Notes under the pieces: generated by a model
The model's input: the letters and a program-made list of their open reading frames with translations, nothing else
Databases searched by the model: none
Told to the model about the DNA's origin: nothing
Position numbers and translations under genes: made by a program
NCBI GenBank assembly: GCA_030704615.1
Contig: CM060731.1
Location: 79,918,001 to 79,982,000, forward strand
Direction of reading: 5' to 3'
Length of the DNA stretch: 64,000 bases
Source of the DNA: Takakia lepidozioides
Taxonomy: Eukaryota > Plantae > Bryophyta
Part shown: positions 21,201-62,291 of the stretch, piece after piece
Layout: the number at the start of each line of letters is the position of its first letter
How positions within the stretch are numbered: the first letter of the stretch is position 1

Positions 21201-23988
21201 TAGAGGATATCTGGAAAACCCGGATTAATGCTTTATATGGAGGTAAGTCTTACTACCAACGTCAGCCCCTGACAGAGGTAGGTTCTGTCCCTTTTGTTCC
21301 CGCTCAAACTGGGCGCGGGGTCAATGGCCACAAGGCTACGGCAAACAACGTCTTATGAGTACAATCTTATGCTTGTATGAAATGTGGGCGATGGCTACAA
21401 GAGAGAAAAGGGAAAAAAGAGAATGTATTTTGTTGTTTGCCGTAGCCTTGTGGCCATACACGCCATGCCCAGTTTGGGTGGGGGAAAGGGGGAGAGAGAG
21501 GCGAGAGCAGGGCACTAGAATTGACATAAACTCAGATACCGAGTGAGGTTATAAGGATGAGAGAAGTTTGAAAGCAATTTAAAAGCAGTTCTGCTAGCTA
21601 TTTTAAAGGGACTGCAAAGTTTTCTTTTTGGCACCTGGTGACTGAGTTGGGCAGTCAGACGGATGGAACAGATGACGGAAAGCCGAGACCTGCTTGGAGG
21701 GCTGCCTTTGCATGGCTGCGGACTTGCCTTATGTGGGTGTTGGGTCGAATTGCAAAAATGCTACAAATTTTGAAAACTGCTGTTCAGGCATTGTTTGAGG
21801 CAGTTGTTCCAGGAAAAATGATAGCATCTGTGAAAGCCACCGTCCGCGCAGGCTATGAGAGATTGTTGGTGACAAGTCTCCGAACAGTCCTTGCAATTCG
21901 GGCGGTAATCTTTGTTGCTTCTAGATGTGCTTCTGTGTCCCCTACCTGTGGTAACAAAGAGAAAGAAGAAAGAAATAGTTATTTTATGCACAGTAGCTCA
22001 GAGAGAGAATGACATATGACATCTTTTTTCTCGACTTGTAAGTTTATGATCAAGGTTCATGAAGTTATAGCACATTGGGTGGTGATTTGTGGACCAGCGT
22101 AGACAAAGCATGCTCCTAGCCACTAACTTGCAACAAGTGTGCACATTTAACCTTGGTTGAGCTGGCAGTCACAAGTTCTGATGGTAGGCAGGCAGAGAGT
22201 AAGGAAGGAGCTCCACATAGACAGTTTGTCGTAGGCTTGTAGATGGAGCAGAATAGGAAGAGATCATGATGGAGCCTTCTCCAGTGTGGAAAGCTTGCTA
22301 TTGAACTTCAACAGATGGATCTGCTGACTTGGACATGAATCTTTGTCCATCTGTCCTCATTGCCAAGGGTGGGCCTTGCCGTTTATCAATGCATATGTAA
22401 CACACAGACCTAGTTTTACTGAACGAGACTCTTTTTCTTTGTGAGAAAATTCTTTCAGGTACAGATAATTATGGATAACCTCGGGACGCGGGCAGTGCGT
22501 TTGGCATGGTATGATACAAATAAAGCTAACAAGTATGTGATCGATGGCTATACCAAGGTAAAGAAGATTGGCTGATGTTCTTTGTGTTGAGTGTAACTGC
22601 TCCCTTTGAGAGTTGAATGGCCTGACAAATCTGTGTGAAATCCGGCTATGGTGATGAGAATGTCTACAGTCCTTTTTGAGCTTTGCAGCATTGTTTTGCA
22701 TTTGTAATATGTGGGAGCAGCGTGTCTTTGCCAGTACTGTACTGTGCAGCAGTTTGAATTCTCAAGCTGAGAACAAGACTTAAGATGTGATGTTTGTAAG
22801 GTCCTTCTTTTGAGTGATTTATTGTTCTAGCATGCTTTCACAATTCTTAAGAAGAGATGATTGTCTCTCTCTTTTGCCTTCTTCTTTAGCAATGGGACTG
22901 GCAGCACAACCGCAGCTGCCTTATCACTTCTGAGGGGGAAAGCACCAGTGCTGAAATTAACTTAGTACAATTTCAATGTCAGCAAGCACATCAGCTCTCT
23001 CTCTGTAACCAGATTGTCAGCAGATGTCCGCGAGTGCTATGCCGGTTTGGGGTGGTCAATGAGTACATTTCTGTGGGTGTGTCTGTGGCTTTTCATAGCT
23101 GCATGTTTAATATATGAGGTGACGCGGGGCTAAAGTAGTAGTGCTGGACCTGGACATATTTGAGTGCTGGCCAGGCATACACTCCCTCCTCTGTGCCGCT
23201 GTCCCAGATTTGAACCATACTTGTGCCCAGACTAGCTTTGGAACTCAACTCTTGCAAGCTTAATGGGTACTGCTAGTATTCAGAGGGAAATGGTAATGAC
23301 TGCACTTTATTTTTGATACATATTTGGCAGCCGTTGAGGTGCAAGGACTGGGAGAAAGCATTGCTTGAATTTGTGATTGCACTGTTGGTAAGTCCGACAG
23401 CTGGCTTGCAACCGCAACAACCACTGGGCCGACGTCTGAAAGATATCTCTTGCCCAGGTAATGTAGTGGCGAAACTTCAATGTTGTTCCTTAGCCTTGCC
23501 CTTGGACCGGTCATGCCATTGAGGTCCTTTAGTTGATGATAAATAAGGATATGTGAAACTGGTGTCCACATGATGTTGCACTGGCTCCAACCTTCACCTG
23601 AGTGCAATTTGGGAAGCCTTGACAATGAATACTTCTGGAGAATTTGTGAGTGTCTATCACTTGAGTGTCTATCACTCAGTTGATGTACAATGGAGGTGAC
23701 TGCATGAGAGAAGACAAGAGGACCTAATTTGAATGCATGTATTGATGCATGGCAGTGCTGGTGATTACCGGGGATACTGATCGGCTAGTGCCGTCATGGA
23801 ATGCCAAGCGACTCGCAGATGCTTTACCACAGGCGCATTTTGTAAGCATCAAGCAATGTGGGCATTTACCCCATGAGGAGAAGCCGGAGGAGTTTCTCTC
23901 CCTTGTGCAAGATTTTGTTGCACAACTTGATCCAAGAGCCGGAGTTGAGCTTTGCACCAGCATGAATAATGTTTTTGCACAATTCTGA
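17533..23988 (+). CDS. Alpha/beta-fold hydrolase (esterase/lipase-like), multi-exon, probable N-terminal transit peptide
   Basis: Exons: 17533-17793, 19120-19303 (LADKDSRFAEFYGVQIHYK), 20014-~20213 (LLHGFGASIFSW..AFDRPAFGLTSR), ~20440-20563, ~20690-20830 (G-HSAG nucleophile), ~21640-21904, ~22459-22557, ~23331-23457, ~23756-23988 (ITGDTDRLVP; CGHLPHEE). Ser-Asp-His triad motifs are present. Confidence 0.9.
18235..18297. repeat. (GA)n microsatellite
   Basis: Direct reading; abuts a LINE-end copy. Confidence 0.95.
20887..21366 (+). repeat. LINE 3'-end fragment, near-identical to ~13577-14055, in a hydrolase intron
   Basis: Very few differences from the 13.6-14.0 kb copy; same CCHC peptide and tail. 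Confidence 0.85.
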
Positions 23989-36073: not shown

Positions 36074-36628
36074 CTACTCGTCGTTCTCAAACAGCCCTGC
36101 CTCCTCAATCAGCTCCTCGTTCTCGTCAACTAGTATATATGTCCTCATCCTCCAAGAAGTCCTTGAACTTTCCTGCTTCGACTAGCTTACAATCAACACG
36201 GGCATCACTGGGCCAATTTTTGTAAACCATTACCAATTTGTCCAGATTATCCACCCCCAGACGACATCGTCTAAGAGCAGTCAACACACCTGCCACGGAG
36301 AAAATTCTCTCCGTCTCAATCTGAGAACCAGGTATTCCAAGAATTTGACGAGCCAACCACCCAACATTAGGGAACCTTGTCTCATGCTCAAACCCCATTT
36401 CATTGGATCCAGTTTCTCCTCATTGTCAACGGGAAAGCGTCGGAATAAGGAAAGCGTCGGAATAAAGAAAGCTCAGCCTTCAATAAGCACTCACTGGCCT
36501 CCTCAGTGGAGGCAGCCCTACCAAACAATCCATGCGAGGGTAGCTCAGGAGTGGGTGGATGCGGAGCTGTGCCACCTTTAGGGTTCAAGTGCTCAATCAC
36601 AGTGGTCAATAGTGGCAGCAATACAACT
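36074..36628 (-). pseudogene. hAT transposase C-terminal part (dimerisation domain)
   Basis: VLLPLLTTVIEHL...HETRFPNVGWLARQILGIPGSQIETERIFSVAG..RRCRLG..NLDKLV..KNWP; frameshifts and a 17-bp internal duplication. Confidence 0.9.
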
Positions 36629-36942
36629 TGTCAAGTTATTTTACCACTAGTGTGAAACTAGCTAGGAAATAGCTAGCTTTTACATATTGACATTTGGGAT
36701 TGGCCCAAGTGTCAATCCAGGGGTCAAGGCAGATTTAGGCCCTGGAGTGGTTATCTTCACGGCAAGCGCGGGAGGCTCATCTTTCTCGAGTTGAGCCTCA
36801 CCGCGCCTAGCTATGGCGCCGTAGTGTGGATTCCCATGGCGTGGGGTGCACTTGGCTTGACTTGTATTGAGTGATGAGGTTATATATGCATGAGTTTATG
36901 CTTCAGATTGTGAGCTCGTGCTTGTATTCTTCTTCTTTATCA
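36629..36942 (+). repeat. Terminal repeat A1 (314 bp; second copy A2 at 46981-47296)
   Basis: A1 and A2 differ only by four single-base indels in short homopolymer runs; no substitutions seen. Confidence 0.95.
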
Positions 36943-37629
36943 CTCGAGAAAGATCAGCTCGTATCTGTGAGTGCCAGATACGAGTTAGTTGTAGCACTTG
37001 TGGTTTTTGCTTGAGAATGAGAGAAACCAAGTTGTTATGCAAGGAGCACCGTGGAGCTCTTGGTTGTTAGAAGCGGAGGCGATGTGGGTTACGAGGTGGT
37101 AAACCTTGGCATTCGATCTTCAGCTTCAGAGATGAAAGCACCATACTGTAGGTAATTCCAGAGCACCTTGATGGTTTCAGATTGTGTACATGCATGAGCA
37201 AGCACGATTGGGAAGAGGACCAGTCAAGAGCAGGTTATAGTGGCTTTGGTGGCAAAGCTGAGAACTGGACTTGGGAATGCGAGCTGTCATTGTATGAAGG
37301 ATTGCAAGACCAAGCGAAAGGGCTGATTTGGCTTGGGGCAAATCAGTGCACTTTGTGGAGTATGGTGAGATTGGGTTTCAATCTCGAGCTTCAGCATTGA
37401 GAGGGCTCTTGTCATGGCGAGAGCAGGGCTGGAACAGGAGCTAAGAGGTGCGGCAAGGCCATGGAATGTGCACCTAGGGTTTCAGAGCTTGGAAGAAGAG
37501 CTCTTGCACCACAAGAGAAGTGTCTTGTGGCTGGAAATGTAAGCCTTAGGGTTTCAGGAGCTTGGCAAAGGCTATGGAGTGCTTAGTCTTGTCTTAGAGA
37601 GCATCAAGGAGCCAAGGAGCCAAGATAGG

Positions 37630-38030
37630 GGGCTGATATCTCTTGTGTGAAGAGGTTGCATGTGTGGAGCATGTATTCAGCTCATTGAAGCTTCCATCTT
37701 CAAGCTTGGAGGGCAAGCAAGGAAGAGGGAAGGGCTGACTTCCCTTATGTGAGGGCAATGCATGTGTGGAGCATGCTATCAGGCTTGAACTTTTTCAGGT
37801 GTGGGAGTGCAAGAAAGGAAGGAAGGGGCTGGTTTCCCTGTAGGGCATGTGGAGCATGCTTTCAGCCTGCTGAAGCTTGTATTTTCAGGTTTGTGGGTGC
37901 AAGAAATGAAGCAAAGGAGCTGATTCTCTTATGGTGAGAGTGGGGCATGTGTGGAGCATGCCTTCAGCCCATTGAGGCTCTTGTTTTCAAGCTTTAGAGA
38001 GCTAGAACGGAAGGTCTAGGGCTGGTTTCC
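37630..38030 (+). repeat. About 4 degenerate ~95-bp tandem units in the retroelement leader
   Basis: Recurring core GCATGT(GT)GGAGCATG..TCAG at ~37658, 37760, 37845, 37945. Confidence 0.75.
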
Positions 38031-38467
38031 ACTTGGAGTGAAAGAAAAGCACTTGTAGGGCCTATGTGAGTTGGGGTTTCAACTTCAAGCTTGAAGGGAG
38101 CGCAACTCTTGAAGCAACAGGTGTAGGGGCTGGAATAGGCTCTAAGACAGATGCTATGGCCAAGGAGAGTGCTTGAATGAGTGCTCACAAGGGCTGGGAA
38201 CCAGCAGGGCTTGGTTGTTTGCCATTGAGTTTAGTGGCGTGTTTGGGGAGGCTAAGTGAGAAAGAAGGCTTGGTTTGTGGCAACCACCTCATGGCTTAGG
38301 GCTACTATGGTGGTGTGTGGGAGCCGAAAGAGCAAGGATACCTTGCTGATTTCCTCACAGCCACCATAGCTCGGTGGAAAGAAGCCTAGAGTCCAAGAGA
38401 CACAAACCCTAGCTTGGCGTGGCTAAACCCCTTGGAGAAATGGCTAAACTGCCAGAGCGGCCATGTG

Positions 38468-39060
38468 TGGGGCTGTGACAGGCTGTGGCAAGCTGTGACG
38501 GGCTGTGACGGGCTGTGACGGGCTGTGGCAAGCTGTGACAGCTTGTGATGGGCTGTGACAGGCTGTGCCCTGTGGCCTTTGGGGCTGTGACGGGCTGTGT
38601 CAGGCTGTGACAGGCTGTGCCCAGTGGCCTTTGGGGCTGTGACGGGCTGTGCGGGGCTGTGACAGGCTGTGCCCTGAGGCCTGTGGGGCTGTGACGGGCT
38701 GTGACAGGCTGTGCCCATGGCCTTTGGGCTGTGATGGTGTGAGGGGCTGTGACAGGCCGTGGCCTGATGGCCTTTGGGGGCTGTGATGGGCTGTGAGGGG
38801 CTGTGACAGGCCGTGCCATGGCCTTGGGGCTGTGAGGGCTGTGAGGGGCTGTGACAGGCCGTGCTGAGGCCTTTGGGGCTGTGACGGGCTGTGAGGGGCT
38901 GTGACAGGCCGTGCTGAGGCCTTTGAGGCTGTGACGGGCTGTGAGGGGCTGTGACAGGCCGTGCCTGAGGCTTTGGGGCTGTGACGGGCTGTGACCAGTG
39001 AGCTGTGTGGGCCTGTGCTGGTCTGTGGTGGCCCGTGTTGACCTGTGGATGGCCTGTGCT
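38468..39060 (+). repeat. 10-bp minisatellite (GGCTGTGACR) with a higher-order ~45-55 bp period, in the retroelement leader
   Basis: Dozens of GGCTGTGA(C/G)(A/G) units interspersed with GGCCTTTGG. Confidence 0.95.
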
Positions 39061-39260
39061 GACGTGGGACTGGCATGTGGTCTGGAAGGCCGAATTTTGA
39101 AGCTCGTGGAGGGCGGTTTGAGGAGTATCTTCATGATATTCCCATGGTCAAGTTCAGGTGTAGGCTATGTTAGGAACTTAGTATTCCAAACCATAAGCCG
39201 CAACAGGTTCTCTACCCGGTTACCTTGTGGAGAGGGGGTTAGGGACATGTTCATGACCGG

Positions 39261-41204
39261 TTGAGTGTCAACACGGAGGTGCCACTAGTTGCTGGGGACA
39301 GTGCCGGTTCGAGCACTAGCGATACTAGTGGGTACACGAGACGAGGTGTGCGGTTTAGGCCACCTTCACCTCCTGTGTCTTCCACGGAAGGTTCTGATTC
39401 GGATTGTGAATCAGGAGGGCTCATACCGGCGGTGCAAGTTGTTTCTTTGCCATTGTTGTGGGACACAATGGAGGAGATGTATGGAGCTACCAAGGGGCCA
39501 CGAAGGTACTCTGGGGCGGTGGGCACCATTGAGTTGGATGATTTTATCCAAGAGTTTGATAGTTGGTGTGATTGCAGCAAATGCGCAATCCACAACTATT
39601 TACGCCGTTCATGGCATGGAAAGGGCTGTTTCAGCACCTTGAGGGGCCGCCTATGGATGATTACCATGAGTTCAGGCGGGGGCATGAGGTTGAGATCGAG
39701 GAGTGGAGGATGTACTGGTCACCCGACTATGTCTCCATCACTAGGGGCACTAGAGCCACGAGGGCAGTGGCTACACCTGCCGCTGCACCGGCAGCTTCAG
39801 CAAGCAGCAGTGGGACTGGTGGTACAGTAGCTACGACGTCCACCCAAGCCACTACCGCACCAGCACTAGCACCCGTGCCTGCCTTCAACCCTGTTGTGGA
39901 GTTCTTCGAAGAGTTGAGAGGGAACTACCAAGGGGTGAGGACAGAGAAGTTGCGGAGCTTGCAAGAGTTCCAACGGAAGCCGACCGAGAGCTTGAGGGAG
40001 GCTTTCACTCGCATGAGGCGCTTGATAAATGTAACCCAAGGGGTTACGGAAGCTCAGGCAGTCCAATTCTGGTATGGGATATTGGACAAGGAGCTGAGGA
40101 GAAGGGTGCGGGATGCAACTCTCCTACAAGCGGCCCAACCCACCTTAGCAAATGTGTTTTTGCTGGCAGAGCGGATAGAGCTCAACATGGTGGAGGAACG
40201 AGTGGTCATGGTGGATTTGCTAAGGAGACACCACGGGGGTAGTGGTGCTCCTAGCCAACCACTACCTCAACGTGCTCAAGGCAACAAGGGGGCTCAGGTG
40301 AAGCTCAGGGAAGGGCAGAGAGGACCTCAGATGCAGGGGTCTCTCCCTTCATTTGCTGGCCAACAACGGGCGGATGTGGTGTGCTGGACATGTGGAGGAC
40401 CCCATGTCAAGAAGGATTGTCCAGAGGGAGGCAAAGGGCCGGCACATGCACAGCCTGCACAGTTACAGTGTGGGCATTGTGGCAAACACGGGCATGGAGA
40501 GGCCAGTGTTATGGTTTGCATCCTGAGTTGCGCCCAGGCCAGTTCCAAGGGAACAATGGTGGCCGGGGGCGAGGTGGAGCAGCCCAGAGGGACGAGGTGG
40601 CCAGCCACGAGGCCAAGGGCAAGCTCAACGTGGCCAAGGACGCGGAGGTCAGGGTGTTGACCAAGGCATGGCCAACCGGCTTCAGCAGCTAGAGCAGAGG
40701 CTCGCTGCCATGGCTACAGCTCAGGTGGTACCGGCTCTAAGGCCGGATGGTCCACCTCCTGCTCCTGAGGGAGGAGATATGGGAGGCATGGGATTCATGT
40801 GTGGAGCAGCACTACCACTAGTGCAGGTGGAGTCTGCTGCAGCCGTGACTCGAGGAGCAGCACGAGTTCCTGAGCCACGAGGTGCAGAGGTGGAGTTGGA
40901 TCCACAGCGTGGGGAGGCAAGCCGTCAGGCTAGGCTTCCTCAGTCATTCACATTGGCGGAGACAGTGTCGACGCCATCCATGGCACCTAGTTCTCGCCCG
41001 ACTGTTACCGAGGCGGAGGTTACTATGCCATTGGGGAGAGCTACACGGGTAGCACCACTACCTAGTGTTGCCAAGGCTACGGCAGCTAGTGTGCTGCTAG
41101 GAGCGGCCACATCTGTGTGCCAGGCTCCATTGTTCTCGGCTACCATGATTGCGACGCCGGGGGTAAGACCAGCTGAGGTTCAGGCTGGCAGCTACACTCT
41201 GTGA
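39261..41204 (+). CDS. gag: Gag with two zinc knuckles (frameshifted in this sequence)
   Basis: LQEFQRKPTESLREAFTRMRRL..FWYGILDKELRRRV capsid-like region; CWTCGGPHVKKDC; CGHCGKHGHGE.QC (across a frameshift) followed by YGLHPEL. Confidence 0.85.
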
Positions 41205-41238
41205 GAGTGGGGAGGTTACTTCATCTTCTGCGGAGATA

Positions 41239-41810
41239 GTGGGAGGTGTAGTGCCGGAGGGATCCTCGGATTTGAGGGTCAAGACTGCCACGGCGGCGCC
41301 ATGGCAAGCTGCAGCTGCCAGGTTGATGGAGCTGCCAGCTAGGCCAGCCATTGAGCGCGCCATGGTGACACCTGGAGTTGTCATGTTAGACAACCAGGAT
41401 GGCATTTTCTGTTTGAGTGGACCGGCAGGCAAGAGGTACCGGCCACTGCGGGTCTTGGACTCGGGAGCTCAGCCATTGATGCTGGGCAGAGCTGCTATTG
41501 CAGGCTTGGGCCTCACGGAGGCGGATATGGAGCCTTGTCCTTTCCAGATACAGACGTCTCTGGGAGGATCGGAGCAGGCTCGGGGCATGACACGGCGTGA
41601 GTTGGCTATCAGACTACGGCCGGATCACCCTACAGATGGCTCAGTGATGCGAGCCAAGGCCATTGTGACAGACGCAGTCTCATACGATGTCCTGGTTGGT
41701 GGGGCAGTGTTGTACCCCATGGGCTTCACCCTGGATTTTTGGGAGGAGTCAGCTTCCTATAGGCCTGCATGGCAGTCAGGGGAGGGCCGGCGTGTGCAGC
41801 TCCCTGTGAC
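41239..41810 (+). CDS. Retropepsin-type aspartic protease domain
   Basis: VLDSGAQPL catalytic DSG at 41458-41466; downstream YDVLVGG matches the (D)xILG motif. Confidence 0.85.
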
Positions 41811-42169
41811 GTTCATAGGAGGAGTTGCGGTTGCCCAGCGAGGCAAGATGCCGACACTAGCAGCATTCACAGCGGCAGTGAGTTGGCCTAGAGAGTTGCT
41901 TGAGGGCAATGCTCATTCAGAGGATGTACCACCTCCGGGAGAGCAGGATGACATGTATGGTATGGCGGAGTTGCCTACCATGGTTGCTCAGACTCCATTG
42001 TGGGGCACGAGCAAGGATTTGCAGCGGGATGCTGATCGACGGGTGCAACAAGCCTGGGTGGAGGCTTTTGTACCGTCAGGGAGAGGAGGAGAGTGTGGGG
42101 ATTGCACCAGGACCACCTCAATTGTCTCCATTGGACACCACACCTATTGTGTGGCAGTCTCCGGATGAA

Positions 42170-43110
42170 GGCATTTGTCTTCTGGACTTGTTTGGCGGGA
42201 TCAGCACCGGATTGGCTGCTGTGTTACAGGCAGGTGTACGAGTTCGGCGTTACCTGTATGTGGAGAGGGATGAGACTGCACGACGCGTTTCACTTCGCCA
42301 TGTTGCTCAGTTGGTGCAGCGGTACCCTGAGTTGTTGTCGGTGTCTGCAATTCGTGGATATCAGCAGGCCTTGCCAGCAGACATTTCGTTGCTGGGGGCG
42401 CAGGATTTGGAGCGGGTTGGCTCCATTGATCTGGTAGTGGCAGGTTGGCCCTGCCAAGGGCATTCATCAGCCGGGCATGGCAATGGATTGCGAGACTCGA
42501 GGTCGGGTCTGTTTTGGGAGATGGTGCGGGTTTTGCGCCACTTGCAGCTTCATCAAGCTGTATCTCCAGCATACATCTTGGAGAATGTGCCACTGATGGG
42601 CGATTCTCGGGCCAGGGTGATGGCCAGTGTGCATCAAGTCCGGTCGTGGCTTGGGTCAGCAGTGTTGCTAGATGCAGCTACAGTGGGGTCACGGGCTCAT
42701 CGTCCACGGCTATGGTGGACTAACATGATGCCACCCGCACTGCTCAAGCGTGCATTTGATGGGGTGCAGCGGCCAGCACATCTCACAGTGGATAACATTC
42801 TGGACACAGGGAGGCAGTCTCAACGTGTGAGACACGATGACCGTTCGCCTTTGGCAGTGGTCAACAAGGTGGGTCAACCACGAGCAGCATTACCTACACT
42901 GCTCAGCTTCCCAGGATCGCATGCTTTCCGGGATAGTGGACCTGGCCTCCTGTGGGATGCTCAGTTGCAGCAGTTAGTGGAGCCTAATGCTGACGAGCGT
43001 GAGGGCAATGGGTTTTACCACTGGTACCACGGCGGTGTCGTCTCTTTCTGAGGCATCACGTCGTCAAGTGTTGGGGCAAGCAATGGATCTCAATTGCTTG
43101 ACCTGGATTA
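42170..43110 (+). CDS. C5 cytosine DNA methyltransferase domain, DNMT3-like, within pol
   Basis: Motif I LLDLFGGISTG, II YVERD, III ADI, IV LVVAGWPCQGHS (PCQ 42449-42457), V SGLFWEMVRVL, VI YILENV (42581-42589), VIII LDAATVGSRAHRPRLWWTNM, IX EPNADERE.AMGF..GTT, X RRQVLGQAMD. One frameshift near 43000. Confidence 0.95.
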
Positions 43111-43570
43111 TCAGCTTGGCTCTGGCTGAGCAACGCAGAGTGCGGAATACACTTCCCTCAATGGTCTCTCTGCCTACCGAGACGGTACAGGCAGTGAGTG
43201 GGGGCGAGCATGTGAGGACCACGGGGTGCATGCATCCATGGCACACGTGGGAGGTGCTCGAGGTTCAGAGTTGGCAGCCAAGGCGGCTGATGGATGAGGT
43301 TGGGGATTCTTCTCGGGTTGAGGAGGTCCTCAAGGATGAGATGATGGGGCAGGATGAGGCCTTGTCATTGACTGAGCAGGCAGGGAGTACTGCTCAAGAG
43401 GTTGCAGCATAGCAACCACGGGACGCGTCCTCTACCTCTAAGCCCACTGGACTTAAGGTTGTAGTTACGGAGGACAATTGGGAGCCTGACATTGGACCAT
43501 TGTCACCGGAGGAGAGAGACGACGTATACGGCGGTTCCTGAGGGCTTACAGGAATTGCTTTGCCTTCAGT

Positions 43571-44900
43571 TTGAAGGACTTGGGAGCACTGAAGGGTCAA
43601 GAGATCCGTATTGAGTTGGCCACTGACACGCCAATCTTTCGGAGACCCTATAGATACAGTGACATGGAGAGGTCTTTGATTCAGATGAGGACTCAAGATC
43701 TCTGGGAGGCAGGTTTGGTGGAGCTCTCTGGTGGAGAGTATGCTTCAGCCACAGTGATGCCAGCCAAGAAGGATGTCTATGGCAATTGGACGGAGAGACG
43801 TATGTGCGATTACCGGCCTGTAAATCGTCAGACCAAGTCCGATAAGTATGCCATGCCAACACCAGAGGAGATCTTTGATGCCATCGGGCATGCTAAGGCC
43901 TTTAGCACTTTGGATTTACGATCCGGATATCACCAGTTGCCAATCAAGGAGGCGGACAAGCAGAAGACGGCATTCTGGGGGATCAATGAGCACGGCAAGG
44001 ATTGCCTATATCAGTGGCGGTTCTTACCATTTGGGCTTAAGAATGCTCCTGCAGAGTTTCAGAGAGTCATGGATAGGATTCTAGCAGGGGTGGACTTTGC
44101 TCGGTGCTACATAGATGACATCATCATCTTTAGTGTTACGATGGAGGAGCATGAGAGACACCTTCAGGTGGTATTGGAGCGCTTGAGAGCGCACGGATTG
44201 AAGTTGCATCCGGGGAAGTGCAAGTTTTTCCACAACCAGATTGAGTATCTGGGTCATGATATATCCTGGAGGATTGGGGGTACAGCAGACTAAGGTAGAG
44301 GCCATTGCACAAATTCCACGCCCCACGGATGTGAGCGAGTTCGAGCTTTCATGGGGTTGGCAAACTATTATAGACGGTTTGTCAAGGGATTTAGTACCAT
44401 TGCAAAGGCTCTAACCAAGCTGACCAAGGTGGACCAGGAGTGGCAGTGGGAAGATGAGCAGGAACGAGCTTTTCAAGAGCTCAAGGCGAGGTTGACCTCG
44501 GCGCCTATCTTGAGACGACCTATCAGGGGGCGTCCCTTTCAGCTGCATACGGATTGGAGCATGCTGGGGCTTGGAGCGGTGCTCACACAGGTGGATGATG
44601 AGGGAAGAGAGTTCGTAGTGGCTTACGCTAGCCGCTCGAAAACGCTGCAGAGGCTAAGTACAGCTCATATGAGGGAGAGTGCTTAGCTGCAGTGTGGGCC
44701 GTGGCACACTTCAGGTGCTATCTATACGGCAATCTTTTCACCCTTGTCACGGATCACCAGCCACTCAAGTGGTTGATGGAGTCAGACAAGCTTACGGGGA
44801 AGCTTGCACGGTGGGCACTTATACTCCAGGAGTATGACTTTCAGGTTGTGCATCGACCGGGTTTGGTCAATCGGGATGCGGATGGATTGAGTCGCAATCC
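43571..44900 (+). CDS. pol: Reverse transcriptase and RNase H (Gypsy type; frameshifted)
   Basis: DYRPVN, LDLRSGYHQ, LPFGLKNAPAEFQ, YIDD (44108-44119), KLHPGKC, YLGH; LHTDWSMLGLGAVL, VTDHQPL, KLARWALILQEYDF, ADGLSR. Confidence 0.97.
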
Positions 44901-45242
44901 ATGCATGAGCCAGCAGGATGACACTGGAGCTCGGTGGCATGGTGAGACGGACGAGGAGATGGTGCCGGGATGGCACGCATCTGCATTTTTGTGTATTGGC
45001 ATCGGGAGGTCAGATTGGACCTACAACAGGGATGACTGTAGACGGAGTGTCTGAGGACCCTGAGGCTAGTGATGAGCTAGGTGGTGCCAGAGATATACAT
45101 GAGGATTCGGCTGTGTTGGACTACCTCCGCACGGGAGACACGGCAGCCATTGTGACTGCCAGGGAGAGGGATCGGATCCTGCAACGAGCCAAGAGGTTCA
45201 AGTGGGAGGGGATACACCTACTTCGAGTGGGAGGATGGTCGG

Positions 45243-46380
45243 GTGAGGATTGTGCCTCACCCCACACAGCGTGCACGGTTAGTGCGGCATGCCCATGAGG
45301 AGTTGGGGCATTTTGGAGTGCGACGCACTCACAGTTTACTGCAGGGGCAGTATTGGTGGCGTGGTATGCATACAGAGGTGCAACAGTTTGTGGCTAGGTG
45401 CATGGTGTGTGACAGGGTGCGTGCTTCATTCAACGCCCCTACACCACAGTTGCATCCTTTACCTATCATGGGATTGGGCTACAGGTGGAGTCTTGACTTC
45501 GCAGGACCGTTGCCACTGACTATGCGCCACCACAGATATGTGTTGGTGATGGTGGAGCACTTCTCCAAGTGGATTGAGTTGGTTCCATTGCCTGACAAGG
45601 CTAGTGAGGGGGCTGCGTATGCATTCTTGGATCGTGTGCTTAGCCGATTTGGTGCTCCAGCTGAGGTACTCACGGACCAAGGGAGAGAGTTTGGGGGAGT
45701 TTCAGGCTTTGTGTGATAAAGCCTTGATAGACCACCGCACCACTTCTCGGGATCATCCTGAGGCCGATGGCTTAGCAGAGAGAGTTGTTCAGACGGTGAA
45801 GAGGGGTTTGCGCAAGTATGGCTTGCAGAAGGGACACCTAGGAGATTGGGATCTTCAGGTTCCTTGGTTAGCCATGGGCTACAGGTTCAGCAAACAAGCA
45901 TCACTTGCCTCCTTCTCACCATATTTCCTTCTCTTTGGCCGAGAGCCGGATTTGCCTGCAGCCATTCGTAGGGACACTGCTCAAGTCCTTAACCTTGACG
46001 ATCCGGACGTGTGGGTACGTGCATGTGATCAGCGTGCAGAGTGTTTCAAGAAAGTCATGCCCATGGCTTTTGAGAACCTTGCCATTGCACAGCACCGTGA
46101 TACGTTGAGGTATGCACTATACGTGGTGGAGGATATCGTCCTGGGGTTCGGAGGTTTAGCCCTGGTGACTATGTTTATTTGCAGCAGACTGCTCCTACGA
46201 CTCTGGATGTTACTGCAGGGCGTGTTATTCTGAGGGTTCGAGAGGTGTTGCCCTCAGGGGTCCTGATCTTGGAGGGTCGGGATGGCATGACTTGGAAGGA
46301 CCATGTGCGTAATTGTGCGCCATGTCACCTTCCCAATGTCGATGGCAGAGTTGACCCAAACTTGGCAGTGGTACCTGCAG
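45243..46380 (+). CDS. DDE integrase with HHCC zinc finger (frameshifted)
   Basis: HEELGHFG..CMVC; WSLDFAGP; VLTDQGREF; DGLAERVVQTVK; FSPYFLLFGREP. Confidence 0.95.
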
Positions 46381-46388
46381 GTTTGAGG

Positions 46389-46529
46389 TGCTGCTCTGTG
46401 GGTCTGCCAAAGGGGCAGCCACCATGCTGGTGTGTGATCGATGCTCAAGGGGTTGGCATATGGGATGCTTGACACCACCTTGAGAAGGTTCCTGACGGAG
46501 ATTGGTTGTGTCCACACTGCTTGGGATAG
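46389..46529 (+). CDS. PHD finger (C4HC3) at the integrase C-terminus
   Basis: Correcting two frameshifts gives C-x-L-CGSAKGAATMLVCDRCSRGWHMGCLTPP(L)EKVPDGDWLCPHCLG*. Confidence 0.9.
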
Positions 46530-46779
46530 TGGCAGTGGACATGACTGGAGGCAGCTAACAAGACATGGGAGGCCAAGCTCATAGGAGTCAATACATGAGA
46601 TCCCAAGCTCAAGTTCACAGGTTGCAAGACGGCGACTAACGATGGGGCAAACTCTTGCACCCGGCCTCTTGATCTATCGAGTTTGAGTGTAGTAGGGATA
46701 GTGGTGGAGGACTTAGTGAGGCTATGGTCACTATCACATCTTGTGGCTACCTGGACTTAGAGGGACCTAAGCACCAGCT

Positions 46780-46790
46780 AGGGGGGCGAT
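46780..46790 (+). promoter_or_regulatory. Polypurine tract (plus-strand primer)
   Basis: AGGGGGGCGAT immediately precedes TGTGTGG, the start of repeat B1. Confidence 0.7.
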
Positions 46791-47485
46791 TGTGTGGACT
46801 AGTGACTGCCATAGTGGGCAGCGTAGTGGCAGCCTAGTGACTGACTAGTTGTAGCCTAGTGGTTGGACTAGTGGCTGGACTAGTGGTAGACTAGTGGTAT
46901 ACTAGTGTGTGGTGTGCACATGTGTTGTGTGGTTTTGGACAGCGATGTAGTTGTGTAGCGATATGTATGCGCACGACAGCTGTCAAGTTATTTTACACTA
47001 GTGTGAAACTAGCTAGGAAATAGCTAGCTTTTACATATTGACATTTGGGATTGGCCCAAGTGTCAATCCAGGGGTCAAGGCAGATTTAGGCCCTGGAGTG
47101 GTTATCTTCACGGCAAGCGCGGGAGGCTCATCTTTCTCGAGTTGAGCCTCACCGCGCCTAGCTATGGCGCCGTAGTGTGGATTCCCCATGGCGTGGGGTG
47201 CACTTGGCTTGACTTGTATTTGAGTGATGAGGTTATATATGCATGAGTTTATGCTTCAGATTTGTGAGCTCGTGCTTGTATTCTTCTTCTTTATCATTGT
47301 GTGGACTAGTGACTGCCATAGTGGGCAGCGTAGTGGCAGCCTAGTGACTGACTAGTTGTAGCCTAGTGGTTGGACTAGTGGCTGGACTAGTGGTAGACTA
47401 GTGGTATACTAGTGTGTGGTGTGCACATGTGTTGTGTGGTTTTGGACAGCGATGTAGTTGTGTAGCGATATGTATGCGCACGACA
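46791..47485 (+). repeat. 3' repeat block: B1 (46791-46978), GC, A2 (46981-47296), T, B2 (47298-47485)
   Basis: B1 and B2 are identical 188-bp TG...CA units rich in ACTAGTG motifs; A2 copies the 5' end of the element. Confidence 0.95.
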
Positions 47486-49319
47486 AACTGAATCATATTC
47501 TTGCACCAGACGTTCAGCTGACATCCTACCAATGTAATCAGCAATGCACTGTAAGCCTTTGAACCGTGGATCCAACATTAAGGCTAGCATGTTATGTGCC
47601 TTGTTCTCAATGAAATATTCAGCAAATGAAAGAAATGGGTGAAGAACCTCTATGACTTGGAGGGCCATGCGAGCATAAAGCAACTTTATCTCCGCATCAA
47701 AAGATCCATATTGTAAGCGTGGCACATGAGCTGTCATTACTTCCACAATCTTCCTCGTCTCCGTCATGGTAGCCAAGCCAGCTAAGAAGGCATCTGAGAG
47801 CAGCCAGTAACCCCTTCGCTGGTTCAGAATGAGTTGGTGCACTACAGGTGTCAAAGTGTCATCCACGGCTCTGGCTATGGCCCATGTTCGCCCACTGGGA
47901 ACCCTGGTTTGCAAGGCAGCAGATTGCCGTGTGTAACAAATATTGATGGCATTAGCATACGCCAACGTCTCCTGAAACATAATGACTTTCGATGCAAATC
48001 TTGTCTTGACAGGGGTCCTGAGTTTTCTCTTGGGCAAGTCTGCATCCACACAGACCTTCTCCCATTCCAACTTGCCCTTACCACTTTTCTTCGTCCAAGT
48101 GATGGTTTTTTGCAAGGCTGCCTGAGCCTCTTTCAAGCTCACCTCAATCATACCACCACTGACCTTCTCCTCATTTGTTGCGTATTGGCATGCCTTAGAC
48201 ATGGCATGCCCAAAGCAAGACCCTGGATAGGGCTCTGATAGCTTCAAAGGATCACATTTCACCACTGAAGTTAGGGCAGATTGCAAAGTCGCAAGGTTAG
48301 CCCCTTCATCCTTTACATAAGCTATCACCTTGTCTGATAGCTTGAATTGAGCCAGCAGAGCTTTCACTTGGGCTGGAAGAGCAAGTCCAGATGTATCTGG
48401 AGCTTCAAAAATACCAACTGTAATATGGCATGGACACCAAACCTCGTTGATAAAGTTTACCACAAGTGCAAAGGTATCATGCCCTGATCTTGACATCCAC
48501 AAGTCAAAGGAGCAAGACACGGTGGATGCAGAGGCTATGGCAGGTAAAACATATGTGTCCATCGTTTTCTTGAACAAAGTAGGTAGATGGTCTTTCACAA
48601 GCTGTTTTCTGCTAGGGAATACAACCTGACCACACTGACCAAATGATTAATCTGCGGAGCCAGGGATTCTCAACAACTGACAGGGGCATGTACCCTTTAC
48701 AGACCAGAAGCACCAGATCTTCAATGAACCTCAGCTGGGCAGGATTATCTATCTTGTATGGCCTACAACTGCCAAAGAACGAAGTGATAGCACTTGGAGG
48801 CACAGACTGTCGTTTTTTGGGTTTCTGACGTTTATTGCTACCTTGATCTACAACAACTTGCCTATGGGCTTTGTATTTTGCAAGATCAGATCCATGCTCA
48901 TTAGAGACATGTTTCTTCATTGCAGTTATACCATGATCTGGATTGTAGTATACAAAGCCTTTTCTGGTTCTGGTTGAGTTACTAGAGCTGTGAGCATTCT
49001 CCACTGAATGACACATAATGCACCTCATCAATTGTGTCTCATTCATCTCTACCTTAGCACTTGCATCGTTTAGGACAAAAAACGCCCAACACTCAGAACC
49101 TTTATGATATGGGAGCCAAAATCCCTGATTGGTGACCAAAATTTGCAAGCGCTAGCGCCACAGAGCCTCCTCCTCGGCAATTCGGTCCTCTTCCGCCTGA
49201 TCACCAACTTGCAGGACCTCCTCGCTTGTCACGCATGTCTCCAAGTCCTCTACATCCTCCCCAGTAGATAGCAACAATGTTTCAGTCTCACTGATCTCTA
49301 ACGCATTGAAGAAATCCAT
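47486..49319 (-). pseudogene. hAT transposase N-terminal/core part (BED finger and DDE core)
   Basis: ATG at 49319; CWAFF..RCIMCH..AMKKHVSNEH (BED); SFDLWMSRSGHD, YVKDEGANL, CFGHAMSKAC, LMLDPRFK. In-frame TAG near 49152 and a frameshift near 48620. Confidence 0.92.
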
Positions 49320-51601
49320 CTCCCCTAGCTAACCTTGTCACAAAGTTGATGTGAATCCCATAAAACAAGCATTCAACACTCAACCGCATGTAACGAGCAA
49401 CAAATGGGCAAGAGGCTCAAAGCAATACCTAAATCGGCCTCCTTGCTTGATGCTGCATTGAAAGCCAACAAACCACCTTCATTGCGATCCCTTCCGCAGC
49501 CAAAACCAAAGCAAGAATCTCACAAAATCTGCCGCCATCTCTAGGCTACGCGCATTGATACCTGAACGGCGATACCACTAACCGAGTTCCAGCGGAAAAA
49601 AACAAGTAACAACATCAACAAAGGTGAGCCCAGACCAGTCGGCTAGGGTATCGGCCTCCCCGAAATCCTAATCATACACTACAGGTAGGTTACTCTACGC
49701 ATTTCCTTTCTATCTGGAACCGGCTGGTAGGGGCTTCCATACCCGGGTGCATAACCGGGTTGATACCCGTATTTTTGTACATACCAGACCAACACCGGTA
49801 AACACCTAGGTACATACGATAACCATTGTACGAACAACCTACCAAGGGAGGCAGTAACTGGTGATTAGGTATGGTGATTAGGTATAATAGGTAGAGAGTA
49901 TGTGTTGAGGGCTGAGTTTGCGGTGCAGGGTAGAGTCTACCCTCTATATGTGTTACACCTGGGGAGTAGAGGAAACGTAACACATATAGATATTTAACAT
50001 CATAACACATATAGAATAAGAATATTTCAAAAATCACACTTAAAGAAGGAACACTTATAGAGAGCTTGAAAACTGGAATGTAACATTTATGGGAAAAAAA
50101 ATGATTATATGTATTACATCGGGTCATCAACAACAAAGTAGGAATCCAATCCAATGTTGATTGTCGATAGTCTCAAACATGCAACTTAGTGATATCCTTA
50201 TTCAAAGGATCGGCATTTTTCATCACCTTGGTGACATCTTCATCCTGTTGCTCTAAAAAACTATGAATATTGGCAAAACCCTCTTGAACAATTGAATAAG
50301 GCACACCATAGGAACGTCAACCTCCATCAAGCTGTCACAAAAAATTGCTTATATTAATGAGAGCCCATTTCATTAGCTGACTGTTGCAATGATCACATTT
50401 TAGTGAAATTAAACAGCCGCTCATGTTAGTAAAATCTGTTTCAGTAGCTGACTGTTTTAATGGTCCCATGTTAGTGGAAGTAAAGAATTTGAATGATCCC
50501 AGCTGACATGTTTAATTGATATATGTCATGACCTTAAACTAAGTACTAGTCTTTTATATATATATATATATATGTTTGAAAAAAATTAACACTTATCGAG
50601 GGCCATTTAGTAAAGGAGGGAGTAAAAATCATCATAACACATAACACCTAACACTTTGCTTTGTAAAATCTTTGGGAGTAAAAAAAAGATAACAGATAAA
50701 GAGGGTTAACAGATATGGAGGGAACATTTATGGAGGGTAGACTGTAGGGCGTAGCGAGTAGGCAGGCAGGTACGTAGCAGAGGGTGACAGAGAGTGCGAG
50801 AGTCTTGTGGTTTTGGTGAGGGAATCCCGACAGTCTGAGATTTGATGATGGATATGTGGAGGGGCAGGTGGGGTATTTCTATTCGAGACTGGGCCCAGAA
50901 AAGTAATAAGTGAAGAGACGGGAGTGTACCGAGAGAGGGGGAAGGGATGAATGGAGGGAGGGCGCGGGGCGAGGCATGATTGTAGGGAAATGTTTTTAGA
51001 CGGAGGGAGAATTTAGACAGGATTAGATTAGCAGAGGAGTCTCGGGAGGAGGGGAGGGCTCGCTCATCTCGTTGTCGTTTTCGCAGCCGCCTTCCCTCTC
51101 GGCAGCCACCCACCACGCTGGGTATTTATCTGCACTCCCTCGCTGCTTCTCACACCCTCGCTTTCTCCTTGCCATACATTGCCCCCTTCGCCCTCTCTGT
51201 CCCTGTCTCTCGATGTTCTCTGTCTGTGTCTCACCCAGTCGGCTTCCATCCGGCTTCCTTCCCGCTTGATTGTCCGCCTGATTACCGTCTCTCTGAATGT
51301 CTCATTCTGGGGGCAGGTCTATCTGTCGATACTGTTCTCCGGTTTTCCTCTAACCGAGCCGCTTTCGTTGTCTTGTCTCTCCAGATTTGGCGGTTTGGTG
51401 GTCTTGTAGTGCAGAGCCTCCTACTTGGGTTTGGGTATATGCTGTGTGGCCCGCCTCCGCCGTGGTTTCATTGTGCTCCACAACGCATTCTTGGTCCAGA
51501 TCTCAATCATCGACATCCACAACTTGGCATGTACAATTAACGTCTTTCTATCGCCTTCCGGGTTGAAGGCCAGGCGGAATCAATCACCCGGTTCAGCCAC
51601 C

Positions 51602-52060
51602 ATGACGCCCACAAAGAAGTTTGTCAAGTTTGTGAAGAAGAGCCTAAAAATCTCACCGGCTGTGCTCAGCTTGGACAGATCTCGTAGCTACTCCAGCTTC
51701 ACGCGTCACACCTCCTTGGCGGACGAGCTGGCATCTTTGGAGAGCCCGCAACCGTCCTTCCAAACTGTGAGGTGGGAGTCCGACCTTGAGTGCACCTATC
51801 CTCCCACTGATGTGCCCAAGGGCTGCCTGGCGGTTTATGTGGGGCGAGAAAGAAGAAGGTTTGTTATCCGAGCTGGCTATTTAAACCACAATGTCTTTCG
51901 TGTTTTGCTCGCAAAGTCTGAGGAGGAGTTTGGGTTTGACAACCAAGGGGGTCTACGAATTGCGTGCGAACCTGATCTGTTCGAGCGGTTGATGTGGCGG
52001 TTTGAGGGAGGGCACTCCCATCACCTACAAGTGGAAGATTTGGTGGGTTTATCTAATTGA
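51602..52060 (+). CDS. SAUR: SAUR (small auxin-up RNA) family protein
   Basis: DVPKGCLAVYVGRERRRFVIRAGYLNHNVFRVLLAKSEEEFGF..QGGLRIACE; uninterrupted ORF. Start codon is tentative. Confidence 0.93.
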   Translation: MTPTKKFVKFVKKSLKISPAVLSLDRSRSYSSFTRHTSLADELASLESPQPSFQTVRWESDLECTYPPTDVPKGCLAVYVGRERRRFVIRAGYLNHNVFRVLLAKSEEEFGFDNQGGLRIACEPDLFERLMWRFEGGHSHHLQVEDLVGLSN

Positions 52061-54279: not shown

Positions 54280-56212
54280 GTGTGGTTGAACGCTTCTCAT
54301 CATCTGCAATTGAATCCAGTCATATTTGAAGGTGCGCTTGGCTGCTCTAGCTGTTCCCAATCTTCTCAAACACAACTGCCAGTGCACCATTGTATGGCGA
54401 CATGTGACAAGGCTATATATTTTGAACCTGGGGCTTGAGAGGCAGCACTAGTCTGTTGGGCAAATGCAATGCAAGGTTGTTGGCTCGTACTAATCCTCTG
54501 ATGCACAAGCAATTGACGAGTCTATTCAACAGCGAACTCCTGAACTTCAAGGATGGCATTAAGTGATGCTTATTGCAAGGCTTCGTATTTCTACTGACAT
54601 ACATCACCCAGATTTCAGTGGCTCTAGACAACAGCTCTAGAATTGAGCACCAAATCAGCCAAAAGGAAAGCAATTTGATGCACAGAAATGAAATGAAATG
54701 GTTCTTTCTAACGTCAGCGGAAAGCTCATAGAGCTTATGGGACAATTTGATGCACAGAAAGAGGAGATTTGTCAGAAAGAGCTCCCTAACTCCAGGTGGT
54801 CAACGACATCTGTTTGGAAGTGTACATGCACTCAATCACCGTGAATGGAGCAGAAGAGAAAGGAAGGGAGATGTTCCTTTTTGTTCTTTTTCTGGTAACA
54901 TCCATGGGGTTGAAATTCAGAGTTTTGCTAGACCCTGATACTAGGTCGTACCACAGAGTGGCTGAGTAATGAGTGTTGTGTGTGAGAGAGCACTAAACGA
55001 TCTCTTCTTGGATACTTGTAACAGCAAGCGGACTACTTGGATTTGACACTTACTCCAAATGATCAGTAAAATTCTTCAATTAAGAAGGAAGTGAATGTAG
55101 AGTCACAATCGTGCTCATAAGACAATTATGTCTAGCATGTTCTGATCAAAATTGTGCAAAGCAATTTTGCACAGGGTTAGTGCAAAGCTTGACAGGTGAA
55201 ATCTTGTGCAGGATCCTTCCGCTTAAATTCCTTACAATCGATAAATATCCACATTGTTTGGTGCTTGCAAAATGCCGAGATTACCGCCCAACTTGCAGGG
55301 GCCATTCAGAGACTGGTCACCAACAATTTCTCATAACCTGCCCCCGAAAGGTGGCTTTGAACACGGATGCTACAAATTCTCCTGGCACCAGTACTGCTTC
55401 AAACAACGCCTGAACAAGATTTATAGCATTTTCGCAATCTGACCCAACACTCTTGGAAATTAGGTCAATTCGCACTGCGCAGCCATCAGCCGTCCCAGCA
55501 GGTAGACTCTGCTCTCCCTCATCTGTTCCATCAGTCCAGCACCCACAACAGAAATATTGCCATCCCTTTCAAAAAGCTAGGCATCACATCATGTAGTTTC
55601 CTGAGATTTCTATAATATTAACCTTCAAGCTGCAGGACTTGATGCCTTCCACCCCTCTAGAAACGCGTGCAACGCAACAATACAGCCAGCCAAGTGCCTG
55701 CGCTACTGTTTGATGAGGATATAAGAAAGAGGAAGAAAGATATAATTTATTACATGAATCAAACATACTGCAGAGAATCCCACACCAAATGGGTTGAAGT
55801 CTGGGGACCCCCTCTTCTACCCCTTGTTCCACTCGAAAGTCCAACCACAAGATTTCAATGTACAGCAATTACTGAAACATGCCACAATTCTTGACTGTAC
55901 AAAAACACCATTTTGTGTGTACATGGAAGGCAGAGAGATTATATGCATAGATCTACAAGTTTGGCCATCATAACATACTGTACACACCATTGCAGACGTA
56001 CGGATACATCTCCCCCCTTCCAATTGGGTTACAAAGTCTTTAGTACATAGCTGTACATATTCATTGCGAATGTCATGTGCATTAGAGGAAGACTAAGGAG
56101 CTTTTGAAGTGCCAGTTTTACCTCTGTGCTTTGTACGAGATGTGAGGCCAATGCAGGTCTATCGAATACCAGCACAGTCCATCGACGATGCTGCAAGGGC
56201 TTTCAGCACCCT
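54280..56212 (-). pseudogene. Decayed inverted duplicate of the alpha/beta-hydrolase gene (exon 3 onward plus 3' flank)
   Basis: Reverse complement matches exon 3 (GGCCTCACATCTCG..CACAGAGGT, ~56110-56212), exon 4 (TCAACCCATTTGG, ~55770-55833), intron/exon 5 (CTCATCAAAC..GCGTTTCTAGAGG, ~55655-55718), exon 6 (~55280-55540) and 3' flank 24350-24490 (~54280-54386). Confidence 0.85.
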
Positions 56213-61879: not shown

Positions 61880-62291
61880 GAAACTCTCTCCCAAAACTAC
61901 TACTTAATTTTAATTTCTCAATGCAAAATTAAAACTCTCACTCCCGAAACTACCACTTACTTTTAATTTCTCAATGCGAAAATGAAACTCTCACTCCCGA
62001 AACTACCACTTACTTTTAATTTCTCAATGCGAAATTGAAACTCTCACTCCCGAAACTACCACTTAATTTTAATTTCTCAATGCGAAATTGTCTCCCACCC
62101 CCCTCATATGGGCGAAGTGCCATGACCAAGGCCATATTCTTCTAAATTTTGACCATGCAAGTAACGCAGTCACTTTTTCACTCCCAGGTTCTCAATAAAA
62201 AAGGAATGGCTTCTTTCGTTTGAATCCATCCTTCCTCGCTCTCAATCCCCAAACTACTACTTAATTTTAATTTCTCAATGCAAAATTGAAA
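61880..62291. repeat. ~53-bp tandem repeat (4 copies plus a detached partial copy)
   Basis: AAACTCTCACTCCCGAAACTACCACTTACTTTTAATTTCTCAATGCGAAA units at 61880-62090; partial copy at ~62240-62291. Confidence 0.9.

Follow-up and report, generated by a model that had tools for sequence, protein, structure and literature searches.

The window analysed here is a stretch of 64,000 nucleotides from Takakia lepidozioides (GenBank assembly GCA_030704615.1, contig CM060731.1, forward-strand positions 79,918,001 to 79,982,000), and coordinates below are positions within it. It holds a Gypsy-type retroelement at 36629-47485, which lies within a hAT-like transposon and whose integrase ends in a PHD finger. 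The parts of the element and of its host are as follows.

36629-47485, + strand: the whole element, laid out as B1-internal-A1-(2 nt)-B2-A2, with TG...CA ends
36629..36942, + strand: repeat B1 (TG...CA), the element's left end
36942..36954, + strand: primer-binding site for self-priming, whose 13 nt pair with 36779-36791 within B1
38420..39003, + strand: G-rich tandem array of 10-bp units, in a 5' leader of ~2.4 kb
39336..42075, + strand: gag with zinc-knuckle-like motifs and aspartic protease (DSG near 41455), frame-broken; relatives P0078 and P0088
42173..43150, + strand: DNMT3-like C5 cytosine methyltransferase with FGG, PC, ENV and RxRxW motifs
43500..44970, + strand: reverse transcriptase (YIDD at 44108) and RNase H
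45261..46116, + strand: HHCC zinc finger and catalytic core of the integrase, with DDE residues near 45495 (D), 45675 (D) and 45778 (E)
46155..46328, + strand: integrase C-terminal beta-barrel domain, just upstream of the PHD finger
46389..46529, + strand: PHD finger (C4HC3) and stop, the integrase's last domain, with two frame breaks (near 46391 and near 46478-46481)
46780..46787, + strand: polypurine tract 5' of A1
46790..46978, + strand: repeat A1 (ends CA)
46975..46984, no strand: A/B junction, a 10-bp palindrome (CA-2 nt-TG) that agrees with both ends of the element as inserted
46981..47296, + strand: repeat B2
47297..47485, + strand: repeat A2, the element's right end, identical to A1
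36625..36628 (left) and 47486-47489 (right), no strand: 4-bp target-site duplication
47486..48646, - strand: host hAT-like transposase, 5' part of the frame; the hAT-like transposon extends on this side to 49151
36129..36628, - strand: host hAT transposase, 3' part, with the hAT dimerisation domain (PF05699, 33.3 bits)

The original prediction placed the element inside another transposable element, and it does interrupt the hAT transposase frame, which runs on across the empty site once the element is removed. The ratio of observed to expected CpG is 0.48 in the element and in its left flank, and 0.60 in its right flank. A SAUR auxin-responsive gene (PF02519) lies at 51410-52060, ~4 kb from the element, and identifies a land-plant host. 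Elsewhere in the window, a dispersed repeat family occupies 10600-31400 and 55278-56151 in both orientations and resembles the 3' ends of another transposon; its copies at 13576-14047 and 20887-21359 are 99% alike. A 53-bp tandem array and a cluster of repeats spaced by 77-111 bp are found at 61882-62291 and 4823-5229.

At its C-terminal end, the DDE integrase is fused to a canonical PHD zinc finger, which forms its last domain. The finger runs from its first Cys codon at 46389 to the stop codon at 46527-46529 and is made up of three reading-frame pieces. All eight C4HC3 ligands are present in the window, spaced C-x2-C-x11-C-x2-C-x4-H-x2-C-x14-C-x2-C, and the tail reads PP...VP.G.W.CP.C, with the Trp two positions before the seventh ligand, so that the canonical finger with a Trp-containing tail that had been predicted is indeed what the locus encodes. 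Even unjoined, the middle piece (46355-46480) passes the Pfam cut-off of 24 with 28.1 bits against PF00628 (E 2e-06), and the finger of the relative P0002 reaches 40.5 bits on the same model. Read through with X at both breaks, the window finger reaches 94.8 bits against a profile of its relatives (60 fingers drawn from 121 proteins), on which three reverse frames give at most 0.2 bits; the two scores and this control rule out a chance motif. The domain order leading to the finger is integrase zinc finger, DDE core, beta-barrel C-terminal domain, PHD and stop, and it is in this sense, as the final domain of the integrase, that the PHD occupies the position of a chromodomain. An AlphaFold model of P0002 (18 sequences) places strands in the barrel region at low confidence (mean pLDDT 55.6), and an HHalign alignment of the C-terminal region with a Tanacetum Pol covered the end of the integrase core only and so gave no homology of the barrel to SH3_Tf2-1.

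Frame breaks are found along the coding region, including two in the integrase core (near 45690 and near 46114), and the breaks were compared with short-read contigs of four runs representing at most three samples. X5 and X10 contigs that otherwise show no difference from the window differ from it in length at exactly the two PHD breaks; four such contigs match the window apart from gaps at these positions. X1 contigs likewise show length differences at the two breaks (23 and 16 contigs), and one RNA run with the label of another species gave no matching read. Many other coding breaks also show length differences among contigs, in 12 listed rows of 26, including those between the integrase core and the C-terminal domain. 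The element family is multi-copy, so that contigs without breaks may stem from sister copies, and one run is possibly the window's own source. Because otherwise identical contigs of other samples differ in length exactly there, the two PHD breaks are likely assembly errors. Whichever copy these contigs represent, accurate copies do not show the finger out of frame. The repeats show the same kind of difference: B1 and B2 are separated by four one-base gaps and no substitution, and A1 and A2 are identical, a pattern of gaps only that points to a young insertion in an indel-prone assembly. Break-free contigs together with repeat identity rule out a dead element. Among sister copies, six of the nine listed variant sites in the finger are synonymous (each counted singly), and none falls at a ligand.

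The finger is a regular part of the family to which this copy belongs. With the integrase C-terminal domain as query, 48 of 58 matches carry PF00628. The original prediction named a finger out of frame with integrase in accurate copies as evidence that would count against it; what is found is integrase core and PHD within one protein in 25 of these 58 matches, and in the seven matches that have a core but lack a PHD label, the sequence stops short or the reading frame shifts, at the finger or ahead of it. Within the best 120 reverse transcriptase-integrase matches, the 77 relatives with a complete integrase and a tail of at least 100 aa include 72 with a PHD, and one further tail, that of P0131, is decayed and finger-like. 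The finger is likewise present in 17 of the 19 methyltransferase matches that bear an integrase. Among the organisms known to carry it are liverworts, Sphagnum, Klebsormidium, Haematococcus and Tetrabaena, and the named integrases nearest to that of the window belong to Calypogeia and Riccia, which makes a bryophyte host likely. Of 80 metagenome loci, most of them decayed, 46 have a detected finger; it shares its frame with the C-terminal domain in 34 and is stop-free in five. No Pfam chromodomain (PF00385) occurs among the listed relatives in three match lists, or in the window, where the stop directly follows the PHD; for 150 representative matches the chromodomain screen was a regular expression, and weak.

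The place of the PHD is also fixed. In all 142 proteins that hold both domains in this order, it starts 60-95 aa past the same integrase position, which rules out a captured fragment of a host gene. PHD similarity tracks integrase similarity (rho 0.27, reached in 0 of 200 permutations, with kinship not corrected for), and this, together with the fixed place, suggests that the pairing fits one old fusion. Mean identity is 0.49 for the PHD, 0.50 for the C-terminal barrel and 0.42 for the linker. In an integrase tree (FastTree, 133 sequences, three of them outgroup, deep nodes weak), a PHD-less clade of 16 members, 14 of them from Closterium, is nested among PHD carriers with a support of 0.99. 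Tails of at least 82 aa are present in 13 of the 16, two of which (P0167 and P0187) carry the methyltransferase in the same protein. Since this clade does without the finger, it is not needed for transposition. Three further observations concern tails and domain order. The PHD-less Closterium clade (P0165, P0167, P0187 and their kin) ends in a short basic tail. Distant members (P0050, P0051, P0058 and ~78 others) have more than 80 aa beyond the PHD, and the P0050 tail bears a likeness to Tudor/Spin-Ssty clusters (score 0.83, a lead only), perhaps as a second reader. In P0333, P0339 and P0357, which are more distant Pol proteins, a PHD stands before the integrase, possibly by a separate capture or shuffle.

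The presence of a methyltransferase in the same element raises the possibility of a parallel to DNMT3-ADD logic, as drawn in the original prediction. With reader and writer coupled in this way, the PHD would sense H3K4me0 and switch on or position the enzyme, so that the new copy or its site becomes methylated. Co-occurrence of the two is real and wide: among 150 best representatives (HMMER, representatives at 50% identity), 69 have a PHD, 52 have both PHD and methyltransferase, and the 73 with neither are mostly concatenated multi-RT proteins of other elements. The enzyme is DNMT3-like, its best PDB matches being DNMT3A/B/C (E 2e-09), and its motifs are collinear, that is, non-rearranged. The nearest solved PHDs read unmodified H3, and in many distant members, which run RT-DNMT-integrase-PHD, the methyltransferase could remain fused to integrase and finger. 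However, the methyltransferase of the window and of its near relatives precedes the reverse transcriptase, and the PHD lies ~1,100 codons (~3.3 kb) downstream, past reverse transcriptase, RNase H and integrase. Near relatives encode gag-protease-DNMT proteins (P0061, P0078, P0083) apart from RT-RH-IN-PHD proteins (P0015, P0040, P0122); methyltransferase and Pol share one ORF in P0042, P0154 and P0160, they occupy two ORFs in the nearest relatives, and the window is frame-broken at this point. The ADD domain of DNMT3 is built of an all-cysteine PHD-like finger and a GATA-like finger and immediately precedes the catalytic domain, on its N-terminal side within one polypeptide. In contrast, the finger of the element is of the C4HC3 type with its His ligand present, and no Pfam match to the ADD family was obtained at E 0.1 for the window piece or for 15 relatives.

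The two domains also part company in evolution. The methyltransferase sits at two places in the family, before the reverse transcriptase (in members named from streptophytes) or after RNase H and ahead of integrase (in Tetrabaena and numerous unnamed members), and the PHD stays fixed to the integrase; moreover, the Closterium-containing clade lost the PHD and kept the enzyme, as P0167 and P0187 attest. These two patterns argue that the finger behaves as part of the integrase, not of the methyltransferase. Because acidic residues that would sense Lys4 are, in addition, missing from the fingers of the window's land-plant clade, we regard a DNMT3-like coupling as doubtful, and the full reader-writer scheme as distinctly improbable, so that the parallel with ADD logic does not carry over from the co-occurrence that prompted it.

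What the finger could read was assessed from its closest relatives of known structure and from the residues at the equivalent positions. The best 60 of 72 PDB matches comprise CHD4, PHF12, KDM5A/B PHD1, ATXR5, PHF21A, BAZ2A/B, DPF3, UHRF1, AIRE and their kin, and ING, BPTF and TAF3 are not among these 60; by sequence, the finger is thus closest to PHDs that read unmodified H3, in keeping with the H3-tail reader type that had been proposed. The aromatic-cage Trp of H3K4me3 readers lies two positions before the His. At that position, Gly or Ala is found in 112 of the 113 fingers that could be parsed (of 123, with 10 left out; 35 from the near, land-plant clade and 78 others), and the H3K4me3 cage, formed by two to four residues in PHDs that read this mark (10.1101/715474, as far as available), is absent. 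Conversely, the window keeps the equivalents of KDM5A L309, V330, P331, G333 and W335, which line the Ala1/Thr3 pocket, together with D312. According to the available parts of the same source, L309, P331, G333 and W335 form the Ala1 pocket of KDM5A PHD1 and D312 binds Arg2 and is essential (10.1101/715474). These positions are also kept in the near clade (D312 in 34 of 35 fingers, P331 in 34, G333 in 32 and W335 in all 35).

The acidic contacts follow a different course. At the equivalents of D292, E305 and D315 the window has Ala, Ala and Ser, and Asp or Glu occurs there in two, none and none, respectively, of the 35 near-clade fingers; the net charge of this clade is +1.8, compared to -2.3 in the 78 other fingers, 51 of which have Asp or Glu right before the first Cys and 22 of which have Glu at E305. 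As the D292A and E305A substitutions each cost KDM5A ~6-fold in affinity (available sections of 10.1101/715474), binding of H3 may be weak, and the lack of acidic Lys4 contacts in the land-plant clade suggests weak discrimination at Lys4. Some exclusion of K4me3 may nevertheless remain, because in BAZ2A backbone carbonyls also hold Lys4 (PMC4291147, accessible portion). Taken together, these residues indicate that the finger is likely a reader of the free H3 N-terminus with weak K4 discrimination.

The loss of three acidic H3 contacts and the turn to positive charge in the land-plant clade could instead mean that the finger drifted off histone reading and became a basic structural or nucleic-acid-contacting extension of the integrase. 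The basic tail that replaces the finger in the PHD-less clade would suit such a function, and PHDs that bind DNA do exist (PMC6222470); these are, however, atypical C3HC2H fingers without histone-binding residues, whereas the window finger is C4HC3 and retains both the Ala1 pocket and the essential Arg2 Asp, so that we consider this drift unlikely. Less likely still, the finger could bind a host chromatin protein or a peptide mimicking the H3 N-terminus, serving nuclear docking or anti-silencing and not target choice: only the Ala1/Arg2 sub-pockets are strictly kept, and presumably any A-R-type N-terminus could fill them. Against this stand the lack of any candidate partner and the fixed fusion to the integrase, which matches the precedent of chromodomain targeting (PMC6673714, in the part available).

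On balance, then, we favour the reading that the PHD on the integrase of this young Gypsy-DNMT3 element tethers the integration complex to nucleosomes via the free H3 N-terminus, which we hold to be reasonably probable, and that it probably does so independently of the methyltransferase. The finger would stay on the integrase after protease processing and bind H3 Ala1-Arg2(-Thr3), and it would weakly disfavour H3K4me3, as expected of a land-plant clade without acidic Lys4 contacts; insertions would then be biased to nucleosomal, non-promoter chromatin, and the methyltransferase would act on cDNA as a separate mature protein. Steering of integration by the PHD is plausible, the insertion of the window element into a hAT being a single case with no background set. 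According to the available text of PMC6673714, the chromodomain is the sole domain shown to direct the integration of retrotransposons via a histone mark. The PHD itself is an expected kind of add-on, and, fixed as it is on the integrase throughout a large clade of the green lineage, it provides a second type of reader with which targeting can be tested. The residue pattern predicts dependence on Ala1 and Arg2, no preference for K4me3, and K4 sensing that is weaker in land-plant members than in distant ones. Moreover, the family is young and of high copy number in a land plant, so that a bias in insertion sites would be measurable from natural copies.

The ends of the element bear on how it integrates. 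The layout B1-internal-A1-(2 nt)-B2-A2 is flanked by a 4-bp duplication, with the self-primer site after B1 and the polypurine tract before A1. From these two priming sites, ordinary reverse transcription should give A+B at both ends, and the inserted form would accordingly be a permutation opened at the palindromic A/B junction. Of 60 loci with enough sequence on the downstream side, 18 end in A-B-A and 31 in A alone, and many of these loci represent one site met in more than one assembly. Where both ends were located (17 loci), 15 loci have a 4-bp duplication in which three or more of the four letters match (nine are exact), and the duplications share no sequence among loci, a result that is silent on chromatin; the A/B spacer is 2 nt in 17 of 19. 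The letters at the B/A join vary among contigs, which confirm this join in other copies. The permuted layout B-internal-A-B-A of the window recurs at L008, L015/L022, L075 and L080. Other copies (L020, L033, L034, L048, L051, L055, L062) have only B at the left and only A at the right, with 4-bp duplications; such B-internal-A copies would be insertions of one-LTR circles or products of A-A recombination. Recurrence of the layout at other loci rules out nested insertion as its cause, and a DIRS/Ngaro element is rejected by the rve and H2C2 integrase, the 4-bp duplication and the lack of any tyrosine recombinase match in 15 frames scanned.

We infer that the cDNA ends are joined and that integrase then cuts at CA-NN-TG within the repeat. 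HIV-1 integrase cleaves such internal palindromes in vitro, and so far only in vitro according to the available text of PMC3185514. A two-LTR circle cut at either junction would yield both B-internal-A-B-A and B-A-B-internal-A copies. No copy starts with B-A-B, compared to four distinct full A-B-A copies; this speaks against a simple two-LTR-circle model, though with too few copies to be decisive. The broader proposal, that in a distinct, deep green-lineage Gypsy group the integrase both reads the H3 N-terminus via its PHD and cuts CA-NN-TG in circular, end-joined cDNA instead of using the ends left by reverse transcription, is tentative, and we would call it possible and not yet probable. If it were true, the group would be a natural case of a DDE retroelement that integrates as a circle, encodes a methyltransferase of its own and chooses its targets by the H3 tail, and the window copy would show the circle route recently in use in a land plant. 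Permuted ends with 4-bp duplications bear on the old question of whether DDE integrases use LTR-junction circles in vivo.

The window element belongs to the Gypsy-DNMT3 family, described as KnitGypsy-Dnmt3 from Klebsormidium nitens with Gypsy domains, a Dnmt3-related enzyme and DIRS-like repeats (PMC5890265, in the portions available); 'Gypsy-DNMT3' of streptophytes is named again in the available part of 10.64898/2026.05.21.726589. The two elements share the Gypsy order RT-RH-IN, a DDE integrase, a DNMT3-like non-rearranged enzyme and DIRS-like repeats (A-coding-B-A-B in the lettering of PMC5890265). The best 120 RT-IN matches include four K. nitens proteins; among the relatives from this species, P0160, with a methyltransferase, falls in the tree ingroup and P0191 carries a PHD. 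Unlike KnitGypsy-Dnmt3, the window element resides in a land plant, and its 4-bp duplication, self-priming and CA-NN-TG junction are absent from the available description of KnitGypsy-Dnmt3 (PMC5890265). The accessible text of that paper also reports no activity of the enzyme in yeast, a result its authors call inconclusive, and proposes action on cDNA; its text and three supplements contain no mention of 'PHD', which the drawing in Fig. 4c may show. In literature outside subscription papers, Repbase reports and bioRxiv supplements, we found no description of a PHD-tipped integrase in this family. The Gypsy-DNMT3 family is thus already known, and the PHD on the integrase is newly shown in a young land-plant copy.

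Among captured PHDs, that of REM1 reportedly lies in a separate antisense ORF. PHD fingers are widespread in retrotransposons (PMC6673714 and PMC8557442, available portions), and fusions of readers to transposable elements have been catalogued (10.1101/2021.11.30.470311, likewise). REM1 and other Chlamydomonas elements, CR1 LINEs, Chlamys PLEs and cnidarian PYGO-type fusions resemble the window element in a retroelement-captured PHD with a proposed role in chromatin targeting, as far as these three sources were available (PMC8557442, PMC6673714, 10.1101/2021.11.30.470311). In contrast to them, the PHD of the window family is attached to a DDE integrase, keeps one position throughout a deep clade and has a methyltransferase alongside. 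Compared to KDM5A/B PHD1, BAZ2A/B, ATXR5, AIRE PHD1 and BHC80, its best PDB matches, the finger likewise lacks a cage and keeps the Ala1 pocket and Arg2 Asp, whereas the acidic Lys4/Arg8 contacts of these unmodified-H3 readers are absent in the land-plant clade and present in many distant members. EpiLTRs similarly unite a reader and a methyltransferase in one LTR element; in the available part of their description (10.64898/2026.05.21.726589) these are a chromodomain, DAM and a DNMT4-related enzyme, whereas the window element has a PHD and a DNMT3-like enzyme, with no DAM seen. In chromoviruses (Tcn1, Tf1/Sushi; PMC6317226), as in the window element, a chromatin reader ends the integrase and self-priming is predicted; the window element and its listed relatives differ in having no chromodomain, and there is a PHD without a methyl-lysine cage, together with permuted repeats and a methyltransferase.
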